Part shown: positions 4,372 to 39,527 of the stretch, one piece after another
Position numbering within the stretch: position 1 is the stretch's first letter
How the letters are laid out: the number at the start of each line of letters is the position of its first letter
Source: Planctomycetota bacterium
GTDB lineage: Bacteria > Planctomycetota > Phycisphaerae > UBA1845
Assembly: GCA_016860685.1 (NCBI GenBank)
Contig: BOJX01000001.1
Span: 29,776-93,775 of the forward strand
Direction: 5' to 3'
DNA: 64,000 bases
Notes under the pieces: generated by a model
What the model was told of the DNA's origin: nothing
What the model saw: only the letters and a program-made list of their open reading frames with translations
The model's database searches: none
Made by a program: the position numbers and the translations under genes

Positions 4372-5145
4372 ATGACAGAGGCGATCCTTCGAGATCTTCT
4401 GGACGCTGTGCGCCGCGGCGCGACTCCCGTCGAGGACGCGATGGCGCGCCTGGCGATCCTCCCCTTCGAAGAACTGCCCTTTGCCCGGGTCGATCATCAT
4501 CGCGCGATCCGTTGCGGGTTCCCGGAGGTCATCTTCTGCCCCGGGAAGACGCCGGATGACACCGCCACGATCTTCGAAGCCCGGGCCCGCGCGGGCGGAA
4601 ACGTCCTCGCGACCCGTGCCGCACCCGAGCAGGCCGACGCGATCCGGCGCCGCACGCCCGACGCACAACATCATGTACGCGCCCGCGCCGTCACCCTGCG
4701 TCAGGAGCCTGCCGCCGCTCCGCTCGGAACCGTCGCAATCCTCGCCGCCGGAACCAGCGACGCCCCGGTCGTCGAGGAGGCGAAGGTCTCGTGCGACATG
4801 ATGAACCTCTCGGCGCACACCGTGTACGACGTCGGCGTCGCTGGACTGCACCGTCTCGTCGCGGCGTGGACGGACCTGCGCGACGCGGACGTCCTCATCG
4901 TCGTCGCCGGGATGGAAGGGGCGCTCCCCAGCGTCGTCGGCGGATTGACCGACAAACCGGTGATCGCCGTCCCGACCAGCGCCGGATACGGCGTGAACTT
5001 CGGCGGGCTGACCGCGCTGCTGGCGATGCTCAACACCTGCGCCTCCGGCGTCACGGTCGTCAACATCGACAACGGGTTCGGCGCCGCCTGCGCCGCGGGA
5101 CGGATGCTGCGCGCCCTGCGGCGGCGAGACGACGCCCCCCCCTGA
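4372..5145 (+). CDS. larB: nickel-pincer cofactor biosynthesis protein LarB (PurE-like carboxylase/hydrolase)
   Basis: Internal ATG 4372 (MTEAILRDLLDAV...). Motifs AAGTSDAPVVEEA, DVGVAGLHRL, VVAGMEGALPSVVGGL, AVPTSAGYG and NIDNGFGAA are typical of LarB / NCAIR-mutase-like proteins. Confidence 0.8.
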   Translation: MTEAILRDLLDAVRRGATPVEDAMARLAILPFEELPFARVDHHRAIRCGFPEVIFCPGKTPDDTATIFEARARAGGNVLATRAAPEQADAIRRRTPDAQHHVRARAVTLRQEPAAAPLGTVAILAAGTSDAPVVEEAKVSCDMMNLSAHTVYDVGVAGLHRLVAAWTDLRDADVLIVVAGMEGALPSVVGGLTDKPVIAVPTSAGYGVNFGGLTALLAMLNTCASGVTVVNIDNGFGAACAAGRMLRALRRRDDAPP

Positions 5146-7667: not shown

Positions 7668-8693
7668 CTACATCCGCGCCACGCGGGCTGCGAGATCCAC
7701 CGTGCGTGAGGAGTAGCCCCACTCATTGTCGTACCAGCCGACGACTTTGATGAGCGTGCCTCCTTTGCCGGGCATCGTCATCGTGCTTTCCGCATCGATG
7801 ATGCAGCTCGCCGGGTTGCCGATGATGTCGCTGCTGACGACCGGGTCCGTGCAATACTCGAGGATGCCCTTCATCTTACCCTCGGACGCAGCCTTCAGCG
7901 CCGCGTTGATCGCCTCCTTCGTCGCACTTTTCTGAAGCGTGGCGACAAGATCCACGATCGACCCGTCCGGCACCGGCACGCGCAGGGAGAAGCCGTTGAG
8001 CTTCCCGTCGAGGGCGGGGAGCACCTTCCCGACCGCTTTCGCGGCGCCGGTCGTCGTCGGAATGATGTTCTGCGCGGCGGCGCGGGCGCGGCGCAGATCC
8101 TTATGCACGAGGTCGGAGACGCGCTGGTCGTTCGTGTAAGCGTGGACGGTCGTCATCAGCCCCTCGACCAGACCGAACGTCTCGTGAATCACTTTCGCCA
8201 TCGGCGCGAGGCAGTTCGTCGTGCAACTCGCGTTCGAGATGCACAGGTGGCTGCCCTTGAGCTGGTCATCGTTGACCCCGAGGACGACGGTGATGTCCGG
8301 GTCGTCGCTGGCGGGCGCGGAGAGGATCACCTTTTTCGCCCCGGCCTTGAGGTGATCGCCGTAACCGCCCTTTTCCGACGAACGCTTTGTGAAAACGCCG
8401 GTGGATTCGATGCAGACGTCTATGCCGAGTTCCTTCCAGGGAAGTTTCGACGGATCCTTCTCCGCCAGCACCCGGACCGGTTTGCCCTCCACGACGATCG
8501 CTCCGTCCCTCGCCTCGACGTGCTTTTCGAAGCGGCCGTGGACGGAGTCGTACTTCAGCAGGTGTGCGAGGGAGGGCACGTCGGTCAGATCGTTGACGGC
8601 GACAACCTCGAAATCGGACGCCCGCTGCGACATGATACGAAACACGATCTTGCCGATCCTGCCGAGCCCGTTGATCGCCACCCGAACCGCCAT
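7668..8693 (-). CDS. gap: type I glyceraldehyde-3-phosphate dehydrogenase
   Basis: ATG 8693 preceded by AAGGAG. Motifs [15 protein letters not shown] and [12 protein letters not shown] (active-site Cys), with WYDNEWGYS near the C-terminus. Confidence 0.95.
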
Positions 8694-9274
8694 GACAGTT
8701 GCTCCTTTGCTCTGCTCGCGTCCGCCCAGCCGTCCCCGTGCGGGGCGCGCCTTGCCCTGAAACCAGCGAATCCGCAGAAGACGCAGAGGGACGCAGATGT
8801 GCGAAGGCAACGATGCTCGTCTCTGCGAACCGAAGCGCGTCGGTGCGGGGTGTTCCGGATCTCTCAATGCGGAACGCGGATGAAAGTGTAAGAGGGCGGC
8901 TCGCGCCGTCAAGAAACCCGTCGCGGAGCCGACGACGCCGCTCGCCCGGCGCCTCCCGCTCGCAATCGGGTAGGAGGGGGCCTCGCGGCCCCCGTCCTCT
9001 CACTCCACCGGACGTACTCAGCATATCCGGCGGGTTCCTTCAGTGTTGCAATGCGGCATGTCGCGCGGTGAGGTTGAGAAGGCCTTGCCGCGCGAAACAC
9101 TCCTCGGACAGCGCTTCTTTCGCCGCCGGCCTGGCATCCGGTTTCTGTGCGTCGAGTCCGAGTTTTGGCCGTCAGCTTCCTTCAGATTCCGCCTCACGGC
9201 GGACACCCTTGCTCGGCCTGGCGGCTCCGGTCATCACGGCCCGCAGAGGACTTGCACCCCCCAACAGTCACGAC

Positions 9275-9369
9275 ATGCCTGACAAACAAAGGGGGTGCGC
9301 CTCCCTCCGGGAGGCGAATATCATCAGAAAAACCGGCATCACAAAGACCGATAGTTCTTCAACGAGCTG
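9275..9369 (-). repeat. structured ~95-bp repeat, copy A (31 nt downstream of the metallophosphoesterase stop)
   Basis: Aligns with 37675-37772 and 13236-13321. Contains a GC hairpin at 9298-9316, then GAAAAACCGGCATCACAAAGACCGAT and TTCAACGAGCTG. Confidence 0.7.
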
Positions 9370-9400
9370 TTAGGATCCGCGCAGGCAAATCTCGCCGAGA

Positions 9401-12997: not shown

Positions 12998-13235
12998 ACG
13001 CTGTGACGCGGTTTCGTAACCAAGCCGCACCCGTGAGAGGGCGTGTTTTTCGTGCGTCCTGATTCTTCATCCGACTCCGGCGTGCAGCGTCCTGAGGGTC
13101 TTGAAGATACGGCGCAGCGCGCCCCGACGCCCCGGAGAGGCCTCCGAGGGTGTCTCGCGGAGAGGCGCCCGAGAGGGGCGGGACATCGGATAACGGAAGC
13201 CCCGAAGAACCTGCTGAGCGGCGGACTTGCGTCTT

Positions 13236-13321
13236 TGCAGGGCTTCCTCCGTCCCTCCGAGACGCAAAATTCACCAGGAAAAACCGGCATCACCAGCGCC
13301 GATCATGAGTTCTCAATCTGG
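13236..13321 (-). repeat. structured ~95-bp repeat, copy B (diverged; 120 nt downstream of the serS stop)
   Basis: Shares CGTCCCTCCGAGACG (hairpin), GGAAAAACCGGCATCAC, CCGAT and GTTCTCAATCTGG with copies A and C. Confidence 0.55.
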
Positions 13322-15823: not shown

Positions 15824-17905
15824 TCAGGGCTGCGGACCGCAGGTGATGCTCGCCTCCACGCCGCACTCGACGAGATCGACGAAGTGCCGCCCGTTCGGAA
15901 TGCGGAAGAACTTCACCTTCGCCCGGCCGTTGTCCTTCACGACGCGCGGGAAGTCCGTCATCGGGTTGTCGTCGAGACGGAACGTGACCGTTGTCCCCGG
16001 ACGCCCGTTGAACAGCTTCGACACCACGGTGATTGAGTTGTCCAGGTGCAGCTTGCAGCCCATCTGGAGGAACTCCAGACCGGTGCAGTCGCCGCCGCTT
16101 TCGCAGGCATCGCCCACGCCGTTCTCGTCTGAGTCCTCCTGACCGGGGTTCGGGACGTCCGGACAATTGTCCACACAATCCGCGACGCCGTCGCCGTCCG
16201 TGTCATCGTCGCTGACGCCGCAGCCGCACGCGCCTTCCTCGGTCTTGTTCGGATCGTCCGGACAGCCGTCGTTGCAGTCGGGCGTCCCGTCGCCGTCCGT
16301 GTCATCATCGCTGACGCCGCAGCCGCACGCGCCTTCCTCGGTCTTGTTCGGATCGTCCGGACAGCCGTCGTTGCAGTCCGGCGTCCCGTCGCCGTCCGTG
16401 TCATCGTCGCTGACGCCGCAGCCGCACGCGCCTTCCTCGGTCTTGTTCGGATCGTCCGGACAGCCGTCGTTGCAGTCGGGCGTGCCGTCGCCGTCCGTGT
16501 CATCATCGCTGACGCCGCAGCCGCACGCGCCTTCCTCGGTCTTGTTCGGATCGTCCGGGCAGCCGTCGTTGCAGTCCGGCGTCCCGTCGCCGTCCGTGTC
16601 CTCATCGCTGACGCCGCAGCCGCACGCGCCTTCCTCGGTCTTGTTCGGATCGTCCGGGCAGCCGTCGTTGCAGTCCGGCGTCCCGTCGCCGTCCGTGTCA
16701 TCATCGCTGACGCCGCAGCCGCACGCGCCTTCCTCGGTCTTGTTCGGATCGTCCGGGCAGCCGTCGTTGCAGTCGGGCGTGCCGTCGCCGTCCGTGTCAT
16801 CATCGCTGACGCCGCAGCCGCACGCGCCTTCCTCGGTCTTGTTCGGATCGTCCGGACAGCCGTCGTTGCAGTCCGGCGTCCCGTCGCCGTCCGTGTCATC
16901 GTCGCTGACGCCGCAGCCGCACGCGCCTTCCTCGGTCTTGTTCGGATCGTCCGGGCAGCCGTCGCAGGCGTCGCCCGCGCCGTCGCCGTCCCGGTCCGAC
17001 TGATCCTTATTGCTCACGTCCGGGCAATTGTCGACGTCGCCGCAGACGCCGTCGCCATCCGCGTCGTTATCCGGATCGTCGGGGCATGCGTCGCAGTCAT
17101 CGATGATCCCGTCGTCATCCCGGTCGCCTTCGATGAAGTCCGACACGCAGTCGCCGTCGCAATCCACGATCGAGTAGTTGAGGTTGCCGGGATTCAGCGT
17201 CGGTGGCGAATTCACGCCGATCGTCTGCCAACCGAACATCTGGAGCGTGTCCCAGTTGTAGGGACCGGGCGACGTGCCCGTAACGACGCCGCCGGCCCAG
17301 AGCAGGGCGTTGGACCCGCAGCGGATGCGGTGCAAGGCGTCCGGCGTGTACGACTCGAAGCGCCCCAGCGCCGTGCCGCCGAGATCGTCGGCGTACTCAT
17401 GTTCGTCGTCCGGAGTCCCGTCGAACTCCTTGTAGCTGACGGCGTCCACCGTGGTGAAATCCGGGAGCGGTCCGTCCAACGTGCCGTCGTTCCCGGCGTC
17501 AAGATCCTGTCCGACGGTGAACGTACCGCCGAAACCGAGCACATACGTGTTCGTGCCGTTTTCGATGTCGGGGTTGAAGTCGAAGATGACGACGTTCGTG
17601 TCCGGGTCCGGCGGCGGCTGGAGCACTGTGCCCGAGTCGCGGATGAGCAGGAGGCCGTTGGCGCCCGTCGAGTACGAGCTGAGATTGAGCGCGACATCGA
17701 TGACGCCGCCGCCGGTCCCGTCGCCCTCAATGACCAGGAACCACCAGCCGCTGAAATTGAAGTTCGGCGCCGCCTGAATCTCGACGAACTCCTGTCCGTT
17801 GTCGGTTGAGGGCGGATCCAGGAGCAACTCGCTTAGGAATCCCTGCCCCAACGCCTGACCCGCCAGCGCGCAAAGCGCCAGTGCTACCCACGCACGTTTC
17901 CGCAT
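15824..17905 (-). CDS. secreted surface protein: lamin-tail-like domain + thrombospondin type-3-like Ca-binding repeats + Cys-framed C-terminal domain
   Basis: ATG 17905 gives the signal peptide MRKRAWVALALCALAGQALG. FLSELLLDPPSTDNGQEFVEI... is LTD-like. Eight copies of the 33-aa unit DGCPDDPNKTEEGACGCGVSDDDTDGDGTPDCN follow, rich in DxDxDG motifs. Confidence 0.8.
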   Translation of the reverse strand: MRKRAWVALALCALAGQALGQGFLSELLLDPPSTDNGQEFVEIQAAPNFNFSGWWFLVIEGDGTGGGVIDVALNLSSYSTGANGLLLIRDSGTVLQPPPDPDTNVVIFDFNPDIENGTNTYVLGFGGTFTVGQDLDAGNDGTLDGPLPDFTTVDAVSYKEFDGTPDDEHEYADDLGGTALGRFESYTPDALHRIRCGSNALLWAGGVVTGTSPGPYNWDTLQMFGWQTIGVNSPPTLNPGNLNYSIVDCDGDCVSDFIEGDRDDDGIIDDCDACPDDPDNDADGDGVCGDVDNCPDVSNKDQSDRDGDGAGDACDGCPDDPNKTEEGACGCGVSDDDTDGDGTPDCNDGCPDDPNKTEEGACGCGVSDDDTDGDGTPDCNDGCPDDPNKTEEGACGCGVSDDDTDGDGTPDCNDGCPDDPNKTEEGACGCGVSDEDTDGDGTPDCNDGCPDDPNKTEEGACGCGVSDDDTDGDGTPDCNDGCPDDPNKTEEGACGCGVSDDDTDGDGTPDCNDGCPDDPNKTEEGACGCGVSDDDTDGDGTPDCNDGCPDDPNKTEEGACGCGVSDDDTDGDGVADCVDNCPDVPNPGQEDSDENGVGDACESGGDCTGLEFLQMGCKLHLDNSITVVSKLFNGRPGTTVTFRLDDNPMTDFPRVVKDNGRAKVKFFRIPNGRHFVDLVECGVEASITCGPQP
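16202..16993. repeat. 8 tandem copies of a 99-bp in-frame repeat
   Basis: Units start at 16202, 16301, 16400, 16499, 16598, 16697, 16796 and 16895. They are near-identical with a few mostly synonymous differences, and the last unit diverges in its final third. Confidence 0.95.
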
Positions 17906-18195
17906 TGATAACCCCCTCGATTGAACTGCCGCGCGCCCCGGAGCGTGACGATCACGCGCCCGCCTGAGTTTGTCCCCTTGCTGTCGTTGGGGCGTAAACC
18001 TCAGGCGCGAAAGCTGACGGAAGATTAACGGTTGACGAAAGCGGCGCAAAGATCGACCGCGTTTCCCCTCCGCCGGCGGCATACGGAATCAAATTAATGT
18101 TTTTTCATGCTCGCAGCGGCTACCCTTCCTTCGAGTTTATCAAGGGGGCGCCGTGGGGTAGCCTCTTTGCAAGCATCGTTGCGAGAGCAGGTTGG

Positions 18196-35070: not shown

Positions 35071-35158
35071 CGCACAGATTTCCGCTCCGGACGGGTCCGG
35101 TCATCGCTTGAACCGGACGCTTTGACGGTCGGGCAGGTCTGGAATTAAGGAACGAGTC

Positions 35159-36358
35159 ATGAGATGCAGGTCGCGGCACGTGGTGTGCTGGGTCGTGTGC
35201 GTGGCGGGGCTGGCTTGCCACGCTCAGGCGCAGGTCAACCTGCCGCCAGGATTCGAGATCGTCGAGTTCGCGGAGAACGACTACGGCATAGCCAACGTGG
35301 ATCTCAACGACTGTGGGCAGGTTGCTTATTCGCAATGGCAGGCATCCAACGGTCACAGCGAGATCTTCGTCTATGACAATGGACGCCTCTTCAGAATCAC
35401 CCAGGGAGACGATCGTAATGTCCATCCTGAAATGAACAACGCAGGGCAGATTATCTGGGGAAGAGGCATTGATCGTAGTTCGGTTACGCAACTTGTGTTA
35501 TACAGTCACGGCCAGGAAACCGTCATTGACGAGAACGTCGACAGCTTCAATGGCTGGTCTATCAACAATGTTGGAAACATTGTGTGGTCGAGAAGCATAA
35601 GTTTGCGCTGCCCTCGGCAGGAGAATCTATTCCAATGGGACGGATCAACGGTGACCCAACTCACGTTCGACGCCGACCGCAGCAATGTGCAACCCAGCCT
35701 CAACGACCATGGTGAATTTGCATGGCCTTATTCGAATTTCTGCGACAATCCGTGGAGTGCGGAGGTTCTCGTTAGATATGCAGATCGGCAGATCACGCTG
35801 CCCTCTCCATACACCCAGAATCAAGCAACGGAGATTACCAACTCCGGTTTCGTGACCTGGCTCTCCACATCCCGGTTAATGCTTTGGACAGGGTCTGAAA
35901 GCAGGCTATTGCTGGAAAGAAGCGGGCGGGCGGCCTTAAACGAGTGGCTTCGGCTGTACGTGACCATTTTCGACTTCGAGAAGACCAGTTGGAACCCGTG
36001 GGTGCTCGATGTAACGGACGAGGGCATGAACATGTTCATGCTCAGGGACAGTGATTACTGGTTTTCCGATGGCTCCGTCAATGAGTGGGGAGAAATCGCG
36101 ACCTCCTGGTCCGAGGATCCTCCAAACAGTCGAAACCGCGGCGCCGTGATGTATCTGCGACGCATCCGCACCGGCGACAGCGAGTTTGACGGCGACATTG
36201 ATCTGCGCGACCACAAGCGGTTGGTTCGAGCGATGACCGGACCCGTCCGGACGGAAGGTCTGTGCGAAGATCGTTTTCTGGACATCAATCACGACGGCGA
36301 TCTGGACCTGGACGACTACGCCAGGCTCCAGAACGCCTTTACCGGGGCGACGCCGTAA
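35159..36358 (+). CDS. secreted repeat protein (six or more N-x-x-G-x-hydrophobic-x-W repeats, propeller-like) with C-terminal dockerin-like module
   Basis: Signal peptide ...VVCVAGLACHAQA. Repeats NDCGQVAYSQW, NNAGQIIWGRG, NNVGNIVWSRS, NDHGEFAWPYS, TNSGFVTWLST, NEWGEIATSWS. C-terminus GDSEFDGDIDLRDHKRLVRAMTGP...DINHDGDLDLDDYARLQNAFTG. GC is visibly lower; a 60-nt sample at 35401-35460 is 52%. Confidence 0.7.
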   Translation: MRCRSRHVVCWVVCVAGLACHAQAQVNLPPGFEIVEFAENDYGIANVDLNDCGQVAYSQWQASNGHSEIFVYDNGRLFRITQGDDRNVHPEMNNAGQIIWGRGIDRSSVTQLVLYSHGQETVIDENVDSFNGWSINNVGNIVWSRSISLRCPRQENLFQWDGSTVTQLTFDADRSNVQPSLNDHGEFAWPYSNFCDNPWSAEVLVRYADRQITLPSPYTQNQATEITNSGFVTWLSTSRLMLWTGSESRLLLERSGRAALNEWLRLYVTIFDFEKTSWNPWVLDVTDEGMNMFMLRDSDYWFSDGSVNEWGEIATSWSEDPPNSRNRGAVMYLRRIRTGDSEFDGDIDLRDHKRLVRAMTGPVRTEGLCEDRFLDINHDGDLDLDDYARLQNAFTGATP

Positions 36359-37393: not shown

Positions 37394-37537
37394 GGGCGGG
37401 GGTCGAGGGGGGTCAGGACAAGGACAAGGCGCAGACGGAGCGAGGCTCCTGCGCGCTGGCCTCGGCGGGGCAAGCACCTGCTCCTGCTCGACGGACTGCC
37501 CGTAAGGCGGAGCGATGGACCTCCCGAGACTGAACTT

Positions 37538-37573
37538 CCGGGACCACGGAAGGACCGCCTTTCGTGGTCCCGG
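37538..37573 (+). terminator. hairpin downstream of the 36383 gene
   Basis: Perfect 11-bp stem CCGGGACCACG / CGTGGTCCCGG with a 14-nt loop. It is followed by a moderately T-rich stretch, not a clean U-tract. Confidence 0.35.
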
Positions 37574-37674
37574 GATGGTCTTCTGGTTTCCGCCGACCGA
37601 CCGCACGCAACCGCGCCCCTCCCCCGGACGCCGATGACGGCGGGCAATGCCCGCCCCACGCGCTCCAGGCATAG

Positions 37675-37772
37675 CAGCCCGTTGAAAAAGGGGTGCGCGT
37701 CCCTTCGGGACGCGAATTTCATCGGGAAAAACCGGCGTCACAAAGACCGATCCCGGGTTCTTCAACGGGCTG
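37675..37772 (-). mobile_element. structured repeat copy C, MITE-like (12-bp terminal inverted repeats, ATAG on both flanks); 63 nt downstream of the tyrA stop
   Basis: CAGCCCGTTGAA (37675-37686) is the exact reverse complement of TTCAACGGGCTG (37761-37772). ATAG occurs at 37671-37674 and 37773-37776. Internal hairpin at 37696-37714. Confidence 0.55.
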
Positions 37773-37835
37773 ATAGGCAAAGGACTCGAAGATGAGCGAT
37801 CCGGGGCAAGCTGCCGCGGAGCAACGAAGCAGGCG

Positions 37836-38987
37836 TTACGACCGCTCCACGACCCGGTCGATGAGGAAGCTCGACTGCACCAGCGCCTCGTCCGTGAAGT
37901 CCCCGAAGAAGCGCCGCACCTCGGCGAACATCGCCTCAAAGGCCGGCTGGTCGCCGCGACGGAGAATCCCGGACAGTTCCTGCGCCGCGGCGATGAAGGC
38001 GCCGGTGACGTTGTCGCGGATCGGGTTGAGCATCTCGATCGGTCCGTAAAGTTGCGGCGACTGGGCGAAGTGCCGCGCGGCCACGTACAACTCCATCAGA
38101 TAGGCCGGCGAGGTAAAGCGCAGCGTCTCGCGCAGATCCACGCCCAGCCGCGACAGGGCGAGACCGAGCACCTGCGTCTGAAAGTGCGTCAGAACCTGCA
38201 CCAGGCCCATCGCGCGGTCATGCTCCTGCGGGTCGGCCTCCGTCAGCACCAGTCCGCGCGCAGAGAGCATCTTCGTCAGCCAGTCATGCCACGCCTCCCC
38301 GCGTCCGCGGCAGAGCACGACGCGCTGCCCCTGAAGCGAGTGAACACCGGGGCCGAACATCGGGTGTGTGCCGACCACCGAGGCGCCGGTGGACGCCGTC
38401 GCATCCATCATCGCCCGCAGCGGCGCCTCCTTGATCGACGTGACGTCCATGAGGAGCGCCTCGGCGCGGACGTGCGGACCGAGCCGGCGGATCACCTCCT
38501 CCGTCACCCCGATCGGCACGCTGATGACGACCACGTCCGCGCTGCGCACCGCCTCCTCGGGCGTCAGCGGCGTGTCCACGTCGGCGATGAGCACCGCGTG
38601 CCCCAAGTCGCCGAAAAGACGCCCCAGCAGCGACCCCATCCCTCCTTTTCCGCCGACCACGGCCACGCTCTTCGGTTCAATCTGCATCGGTAGCTCCGCG
38701 CGGAGGGCGGCCTGATGATCGCGGCTGGTCAGCAGCACGAGTCGGTAGATCGCCTCGATCTCCTCGCGCGGCAGCCCCAGCTTCTCCGCCCGTCCGCAAC
38801 GATCAGCGATGACCTCACGCTCGCGGGAGCGGTCGCGGATCGGAACCTGGTTCTCCCGCTTGTACGCGGCGATCTCCCCCACGATCGCCATCCGCCGCGC
38901 CATGAGTTGCAGCATGTCGCGGTCGATCGCGTCGATCATCGCCCGCAGCACGGGCAAAGGCCGGTTTGTTACCCGAGGTTCTTCCAT
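37836..38987 (-). CDS. tyrA: bifunctional chorismate mutase / prephenate dehydrogenase
   Basis: ATG 38987. The N-terminal CM type II region is LRAMIDAIDRDMLQLMARRMAIVGEIAAYK. It is followed by the Rossmann motif VAVVGGKGGMGSLLG and a prephenate dehydrogenase core. Confidence 0.85.
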   Translation of the reverse strand: MEEPRVTNRPLPVLRAMIDAIDRDMLQLMARRMAIVGEIAAYKRENQVPIRDRSREREVIADRCGRAEKLGLPREEIEAIYRLVLLTSRDHQAALRAELPMQIEPKSVAVVGGKGGMGSLLGRLFGDLGHAVLIADVDTPLTPEEAVRSADVVVISVPIGVTEEVIRRLGPHVRAEALLMDVTSIKEAPLRAMMDATASTGASVVGTHPMFGPGVHSLQGQRVVLCRGRGEAWHDWLTKMLSARGLVLTEADPQEHDRAMGLVQVLTHFQTQVLGLALSRLGVDLRETLRFTSPAYLMELYVAARHFAQSPQLYGPIEMLNPIRDNVTGAFIAAAQELSGILRRGDQPAFEAMFAEVRRFFGDFTDEALVQSSFLIDRVVERS

Positions 38988-39527
38988 CTTAAAACTCGAA
39001 GGCCGCAATCGTGGCGCCCACGACGGAGATCGGATCATCCCTTATTCCGGCCTCGTCGTCACGCGCGATCCCGCACTCCGGAGCTGTGTCAGCGGCGTGT
39101 TACGTGCGGCGGGGAGATTGAAGCGTGCCGCTTGCGGCGTGAATCGGGCGAGGCGGAGATACCGTCCCGGGTTTGTCGGCAGGCTGAGTTACAGGGCGAT
39201 CTCGGCGGCGACCGTGCCCACCCTGCCGAAGCCGGATGGACACAGTCGTCCGCTTGGAGAAGAGGAGGCTCAAGGGATTCCCGCCGCGCGGGATCGCGCC
39301 GGTGCGATTCCCCCCTTCCACATCGGCGCGTCCGTCCGCCTCGACGCAGGCGGGGATCCCATCAAGATCGTCATCTTGCCGGATCCGGTCGCGGCGGTCC
39401 CTCGCCGCCGTGCCTCGGTCCGGTTTGTTGTTTTTCTAGTCGCTCCGGTCAGTCGCCCCGACGCTCGCCCCCCCCGGTCGTTATCACGCCTGAGCAGGGC
39501 GAAGGGTTCTAGGAACCGCAGTCCGCG

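Follow-up and report, generated by a model that had tools for sequence, protein, structure and literature searches.

What kind of element is the repeat of about 98 nt that occurs three times in this stretch of Planctomycetota DNA? In the window, by which we mean the whole 64,000 nt that were analysed, one copy of the repeat (copy C) ends in short inverted repeats and has the same tetranucleotide on either side. This arrangement is what a non-autonomous MITE with its target-site duplication would look like, while the same termini could also close the stem of an RNA. Our results make it very probable that the repeat is a non-autonomous MITE, which carries the ends of an IS5/IS1182-like insertion sequence (IS), is flanked by a 4-bp YTAR duplication, and has empty sites in related genomes.

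The structure reported for copy C in the preliminary description is correct. Its 12-bp termini, CAGCCCGTTGAA (37675–37686) and TTCAACGGGCTG (37761–37772), are exact reverse complements with 74 nt between them, and the sequence reads ATAG immediately outside both ends (Table 1). Taken alone, a perfect inverted repeat of 12 bp within a span of 100 nt could have arisen by chance in this window, where four were counted against 1.3 expected from first-order Markov simulations. The inverted repeat of copy C is taken as real because it recurs, in 28 copies of the family and, as an 18-nt left terminus, in at least 120 metagenome contigs. Copies A and B lie on the same strand as copy C. They were also found as described before: copy A has kept its right end while its left one is degraded, and copy B has both ends degraded.

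Table 1. Coordinates of the MITE copies and their parts in the window, and of IS elements with matching ends in metagenome contigs.
Feature	Position or locus	Strand	Length	Flanks (left/right)	Description or basis
Copy C, complete MITE	37675..37772	+	98 nt		IRL-type to IRR-type end; top window match to the family HMM
ATAG, left copy of target-site duplication	37671..37674	.	4 bp		Sequence and family-wide direct-repeat test
ATAG, right copy of target-site duplication	37773..37776	.	4 bp		Sequence and family-wide direct-repeat test
Left terminal repeat CAGCCCGTTGAAAAAGGG	37675..37692	+			Identical to IRL of full-length IS in L139, L160 and L165
Right terminal repeat GGGTTCTTCAACGGGCTG	37755..37772	+			Identical to IRR of full-length IS in L139
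Internal GC-rich hairpin CGCGTCCC-TTC-GGGACGCG	37696..37714	+			Alignment of copies
Copy A	9274..9369	+			Right end TTCAACGAGCTG intact; left terminal repeat degraded (CATGCCTGACAAACAAAGGGGG); rearrangement on left
TTAG target, right junction of copy A	9370..9373	.			Unoccupied in relative L038
Copy B	13227..13321	+			Old, degraded at both ends; family HMM; compared with relatives L038–L040
Full-length IS	L139		1518 bp	CTAG/CTAG	
Full-length IS	L165		1447 bp	CTAG/CTAG	
Full-length IS	L160		1487 bp	CTAA/CTAG	
IS	L178		~1.5 kb	CTAG/CTAG	Ends CAGCCCGTTGAAAAAG.. and ..TTCTTCAACGGGCTG

Further copies of the repeat are present in close relatives. The window encodes the proteins of the MAG 'Planctomycetota bacterium BroJett003' (GIK15081.1 and GIK15082.1). 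It aligns with a contig of the Phycisphaerae MAG_25 at 92.6% identity over 8 kb, and with contigs of GCA_024434075.1 and GCA_045863715.1 at 93–95% identity. A search with the exact 25-mer AAAAACCGGCRTCACNNNNNCCGAT from the element core, in one genome per species, matched 33 loci, 20 of which belong to the Phycisphaerae MAGs MAG_25 (14 loci) and Bin_14R (6 loci). The remaining 13 loci matched in the core only; they lie mostly in coding sequence of unrelated phyla and had low scores with the family HMM. Iterated nhmmer searches on the window and these loci yielded 28 copies, 3 in the window and 25 in the two related Phycisphaerae MAGs, and some 8-kb loci carried two or three of them. The mean pairwise identity of the copies was 80%. 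Extrapolated from 3 copies per 64 kb, the whole genome would hold about 100–200 of them. Six of the 28 lacked the core search pattern, and ascertainment with an exact 25-mer inflates the apparent invariance of the element core. The termini are conserved across the 28 copies, as would be expected for a MITE family: the outer 12 nt were complementary in 82.6% of cells over 27 copies, and perfectly so in copy C. The element is non-coding and has the size of a MITE (below ~300 bp), with 98 nt in copy C and 93–100 nt among the copies.

In Bin_14R, three copies (L007 3427–3490, L008 1–76 and L012 5650–5678) have identical sequence past the IRR end. L007 and L008 share at least 60 nt of it, and L012 shares 29 nt before its contig ends. 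The contigs of L008 and L012 both terminate within it. In Bin_14R, the MITE thus belongs to a longer repeat. The ORFs beside this longer repeat in L007 were considered as a transposase and rejected, as by eye they resemble surface-protein-type repeats.

The flanks of the family are a target-site duplication and not a conserved part of the element. The four bases outside each end were YTAR-like in the 23 copies with two ends, with T and A at positions 2 and 3, respectively. The other two positions vary, and there the left and right flanks agreed in 30 of 46 comparisons, against 14.9 in shuffles that permuted the right flanks among copies (P<5e-5), with a few flank registers set by eye where the termini have indels. 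The duplications vary in sequence between copies (TTAG, CTAA, ATAG, CTAT), which the preliminary description had named as a check, and perfect pairs were found of TTAG, ATAG and CTAA. It had also stated that ATAG is a direct repeat and not a palindromic extension of the termini. This applies to the family as a whole, in which a palindromic relation between the flanks was seen in 11 of 46 comparisons, against 13.7 in shuffles. Independent metagenome elements with the same terminus showed perfect 4-bp direct repeats in 22 of 53 cases, against 5.0 in shuffles.

Empty sites, another check proposed for relatives, were found at two loci (L033/L179 and L024/L180), together with a half site at copy A of the window. 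In MAG_25, the filled site L033 reads ..CCTCCC-CTAA-(98 nt)-CTAA-CGTCGCG.. and lies between a sensor-kinase gene and hypE. The corresponding contig L179, which is of the window's lineage and carries the BroJett003 HypE protein, reads ..CCTCCC-CTAA-CGTCGCG... Comparison of the two sequences shows that L179 is without exactly the element and one CTAA. At L024, MAG_25 has two copies 146 nt apart, whereas the BroJett003-type contig L180 has one, the adjacent copy being common to both. Here L180 is without a 103-nt stretch of L024, a length that corresponds to the element (97 nt) and roughly one 4-bp flank. The sequence is GGGG-CTAA-(97 nt)-CTGA-GGCTT at the filled site, against GGGG-CGGA-GGCTT at the empty site. 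L180 also contains a fragment of an IS66-family transposase (DDE_Tnp_IS66; 4584–4997), ~320 nt from a MITE copy; this fragment belongs to an unrelated IS family.

The half empty site at copy A was seen in relative L038, which reads ..gccTTAGgatcc.. where the window reads ..GAGCTG/TTAGgatcc.., with a break in synteny at CTG/TTAG. At this site L038 has ..ccaccgccTTAGgatccgcg.., where a convergent gene ends with the stop codon TAG, while the junction in the window reads ..TTCAACGAGCTG/TTAGgatccgcg.. A copy in Bin_14R (L008) lies beside the orthologue of the window gene that ends near 39190, and both the window and MAG_25 are element-free there. We rejected this locus as an exact empty site, as its intergenic DNA is too diverged and the contig too short.

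If the repeat is a MITE, a transposase-bearing IS with the same ends might be expected, and the preliminary description had suggested looking for one. Full-length IS with the same termini were indeed found (L139, L160, L165 and L178; Table 1). The left end CAGCCCGTTGAAAAAGGG and right end GGGTTCTTCAACGGGCTG of the IS in L139 are identical to both 18-nt ends of the window MITE. Hence, the MITE shares the asymmetry of the IS: its left end is of the IRL type and its right end of the IRR type. The IS in L160, L165 and L178 share the outer 12–16 nt with the MITE, including the outer 12 nt of the right end in all three. The contig of L178 carries a transposase attributed by one source to a Sedimentisphaerales MAG (class Phycisphaerae).

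The IS of L139, L160 and L165 each encode one protein of 458–465 aa, in which the Pfam domains DUF772 and DDE_Tnp_1 both scored above their cut-offs. Among the NCBIfam models, IS1182 gave the best score (161–190 bits against a cut-off of 270, with about two thirds of the model matched), followed by IS5_4 (87–109 bits against a cut-off of 140), and other IS5 models scored lower. At least 8000 homologues of these transposases were found at E<1e-60, mostly on contigs of ~1.5 kb. From these protein matches, the partner IS is best described as IS5/IS1182-like, a description that stays short of strict membership as the scores lie below the curated cut-offs.

The comparison with characterized elements points in the same two directions. 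Like IS5 (IS5 family, IS5 group), the partner transposase combines an N-terminal DUF772 (InsH-type) domain with DDE_Tnp_1, and both the MITE family and the partner IS make a 4-bp YTAR duplication, as is known of IS5 (PMC5009759). In contrast to IS5, the partner transposase is ~460 aa long and falls under the NCBIfam IS5 cut-offs, with lower scores than for the IS1182 model. The partner IS also differs in its size of 1.45–1.52 kb, compared to ~1.2 kb for IS5. ISPse1, an IS1182-family element of Paracoccus, has a length of 1653 bp, terminal repeats matching at 16/16 positions and a direct repeat of 4 bp (PMC3281130). The partner IS is of a similar size class, and likewise has ~16-bp terminal repeats and a 4-bp duplication. 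Yet, its transposase is set apart from the IS1182 family by the low and partial match to the IS1182 model given above.

The 98-nt element itself resembles the Correia/NEMIS elements of Neisseria, RUP, SPRITE (S. pneumoniae) and ERIC in being short, non-coding, intergenic and multi-copy, with inverted termini and strong hairpins. It differs from all of these in host phylum, termini and parent IS family. Correia elements duplicate TA, whereas the duplication in the 98-nt family is a 4-bp YTAR. Unlike SPRITE, the 98-nt element is without a canonical terminator, since its hairpin is not directly followed by a U tract. Tourist-type MITEs/PIF-Harbinger elements are non-autonomous derivatives as well, with transposases related to the IS5 group and a T-A-centred target; they are eukaryotic and have a 3-bp TWA duplication.

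According to the preliminary description, the window contains no transposase. This holds for the partner-IS family: tblastn with the partner-IS transposases found no homologue in the window or in the loci of related genomes (L001–L055). With the transposase absent from these sequences, mobilisation would have to occur in trans, which is also how bacterial MITEs are thought to be mobilised by an IS transposase (PMC3733652, PMC10969869). The Phycisphaerae loci were also searched for matches to the terminal repeats only, which might indicate an autonomous IS, and had none. A literature search for the terminal 12-mer CAGCCCGTTGAA returned unrelated papers only.

In a metagenome scan, the left terminus CMGCCCGTTGAAAAAGGG occurred at no fewer than 120 loci, nearly all of them preceded by a YTAR-like tetranucleotide. 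Among the matches listed (L056–L175), most were short elements of 65–152 nt that have the same ends and unrelated interiors. This pattern suggests that one IS group repeatedly gives birth to MITEs. Among the same listed matches, the window's own family was present on one contig only (L125). Some of the other short-element families in this list have a length of 98–99 nt and long inverted arms rich in GC; further ones measure 128 or 131 nt.

Copy C is structurally intact yet old, and without extra constraint compared to the adjacent intergenic DNA. It occupies the identical site in 7 related assemblies, with conserved ATAG flanks, and a sister species at ~93% identity also carries it with identical ATAG flanks. 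Because copy C is shared with this sister species, it has not moved since the split of the two and is an old insertion. Between the two lineages the orthologous copies differ at 10 of 98 positions, and the surrounding intergenic DNA at ~5%. One of the changes affects position 2 of the terminal repeat, where window (37676/37771) and L046 (4302/4397) differ on both arms, from A-T to C-G. Possibly, this two-arm change and the 10 differences in copy C reflect conversion from another copy or between the arms.

In the same intergenic region, four short-read (Logan) contigs (L052–L055, orthologues of the window around ~37497) all stop ~104 nt past a 335-aa gene, well short of copy C, and one of these contigs recurs in at least 20 samples. 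These contig ends hint at a further repeat or a strain-variable point in that intergenic region.

A further reading would be compatible with the MITE. Retained copies might have taken on a secondary role at the 3' ends of genes, one that depends on their orientation: they would serve the upstream gene as a terminator or as a hairpin that stabilises its RNA. According to the codon-bias caller, the IRR-side gene is directed toward the element in 18 of 24 cases. In line with this reading, between tandem genes the reverse complement of the element was co-directional with the genes by 8:0 (7:0 if one intergenic region is counted once; P=0.008–0.016), and between convergent genes the IRR-side gene was the nearer one in 8 of 9 cases (P=0.04). 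The copies usually lie 1–160 nt past the stop codon of that gene, and the pairing of the hairpin has been kept via compensatory change. On the minus strand the element shows a GC hairpin followed by ACCCC and UUUUU. However, neither strand has a canonical terminator, as the U run starts 5–6 nt past the stem, and a scan of 37400–37900 on both strands for sigma-70 promoters and intrinsic terminators found no sites. Moreover, the sample is small, the genes come from a simple codon-bias caller and include some weak flanking ORFs, and the element evolves no slower than the adjacent intergenic DNA. The bias could also result from purging of harmful orientations instead of a gained function. Altogether, we consider a co-opted role of the copies unlikely. 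The modest orientation bias, from a small sample with crude gene calls, may possibly reflect selection, perhaps via transcript 3' ends.

Much less probable is the fallback of the preliminary description, according to which the termini are the closing stem of a ~98-nt RNA. Here the 98-nt unit would be a structured small RNA gene or cis-regulatory RNA, and its copies would have arisen by gene duplication. Stable folds are indeed predicted for single copies on both strands (-44 to -48 kcal/mol, with z about -4.3 to -5), but any element with inverted ends would fold strongly in this way. One pair of the internal hairpin shows a compensatory change from C-G to G-C in 5–7 copies; 20 copies have C-G here and 7 have G-C or G-U, and no other pair covaries clearly. 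The A-T to C-G change at position 2 of the terminal stem, seen when the orthologues of copy C are compared, could be read in the same way. In contrast, a search of Rfam 15 gave no match for the repeat, either with gathering thresholds over the whole window or at E<=10 around the copies, and RNAalifold did not recover the terminal stem. Contrary to what a closing stem would predict, the termini are mismatched in most copies, with two of the twelve pairs, 8/109 and 12/105, unpaired in 15 of 27 and 10 of 27 copies, respectively. The 10 differences in 98 positions of copy C, against ~5% in the flanking intergenic DNA, also speak against extra constraint. Furthermore, an RNA would leave the variable 4-bp duplications, the exact empty sites and the occurrence of the same ends on transposase-bearing IS unexplained. 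The covarying hairpin pair and the change at position 2 are hints of a role for base pairing, or of conversion affecting arms or copies, and fall short of indicating an RNA gene.

To our knowledge, Y1-transposase elements make no target duplication. That the element is a REP/REPIN-type palindrome moved by a RAYT (IS200/IS605-like tyrosine transposase), with xTAG as a tag and not a duplication, is so improbable that it can be dismissed, even though some flanks read GTAG or CTAG and GTAG-tagged REPs have been reported in the Planctomycetes-Verrucomicrobia-Chlamydiae group (PMC3733652), because the tetranucleotide is not fixed (TTAG, CTAA, ATAG, CTAT and others) and is directly repeated on both sides, and empty sites are present at which a single tetranucleotide pre-exists; in addition, the element of 98 nt, compared to 20–40 bp described for REPs (PMC3733652), has an IRL-type and an IRR-type end, which differ from each other and correspond to those of a DDE-transposase IS.

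The interpretation of the repeat as a MITE, in contrast, is backed by the further copies, the varying 4-bp duplications, the empty sites and the transposase-bearing IS with matching ends. Its movement could be pictured step by step. A transposase supplied in trans would bind both ends of the element, and the bound element would then be excised or copied. Insertion would take place at a YTAR tetranucleotide via a 4-bp staggered cut, and repair of this cut would produce the flanking 4-bp direct repeat. We infer this cut-and-repair chemistry, as well as the mobilisation in trans, from the known behaviour of IS5/IS1182-group DDE transposases.

The three copies in the window have had different fates: copy C is intact but old, copy A is half-rearranged, and copy B has decayed. 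At copy A, the window can be aligned with L038 from the metallophosphoesterase gene onwards, and the alignment breaks off exactly at window position 9370. Left of copy A the DNA of the window differs from that of the relative, and contains the gap gene as well as a fragment of a group II intron. Copy A is therefore located at a rearrangement point, with the breakpoint at or inside copy A. In the relative, the DNA opposite the window from ~9274 leftwards (L038 12205–15335) carries a zinc-ribbon (DZR) gene and a Na+/H+ exchanger gene.

Between copy A and gap, the minus strand of the window matches the Rfam family group-II-D1D4-3 (8988–9203; 52.5 bits, E=1e-7); gap starts at 8693, also on the minus strand. 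Near this match, neither a domain V/VI match nor a reverse-transcriptase ORF was found, and it looks like an intron fragment in the 5' region of gap. We considered whether a group II intron has split copy A, with the left terminal repeat at 8664–8675. This was rejected, as the 12-mer is part of the coding sequence of gap (..INGLG..) and matches there by chance.

Copy B is common to the window and its relatives. In the relatives (L038–L040), the right terminal repeat is better kept (TTCAACGGGCGG), and the left part has been lost in a 237-nt deletion. The deleted stretch corresponds to 12998–13234 of the window, from copy B to a peptidase gene, and is absent at L038 8524–8545. It takes out half of the copy B hairpin. 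In Bin_14R and in more distant relatives, orthologues of copy B were uninformative, as the gene neighbours differ.

Two other repeats were noted in the window. A minus-strand ORF (15824–18082) contains 9–11 tandem repeats of 99 nt (33 codons) at 16049–17140, which are 92–94% identical in the middle of the array. A 52-nt inverted repeat (35071–35122 and 36215–36266) is 83% complementary, and 1092 nt separate its arms. One of them is found a short distance upstream of a 399-aa ORF (35159–36358), and the other within the 3' end of this ORF.

A wider reading combines several of these observations. Among the matches listed, the terminus CAGCCCGTTGAAAAAGGG also heads at least three complete IS of ~1.5 kb. 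The combination of CAGCCCGTTGAAAAAGGG and YTAR may define a very large, seemingly undescribed IS/MITE superfamily, of which the Phycisphaerae copies would be orientation-kept as 3'-end elements (terminator or stabiliser). We regard this combined proposal as speculative and rather doubtful.

Our results document a MITE family in an uncultured lineage of Phycisphaerae, with its ends, target duplication, empty sites and parent IS family. This is a well-known kind of element; the finding changes no concept and is mainly relevant to specialists of mobile DNA. In these MAGs the repeats mark assembly breaks and rearrangement points, such as the break in synteny at copy A, and they can serve as markers of insertion polymorphism between close lineages. 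They also flag 98-nt hairpins that annotation pipelines might take for RNA genes. Beyond this lineage, the presence of the terminus on many unrelated short metagenome elements suggests an abundant IS5/IS1182-like group that repeatedly spawns MITEs.
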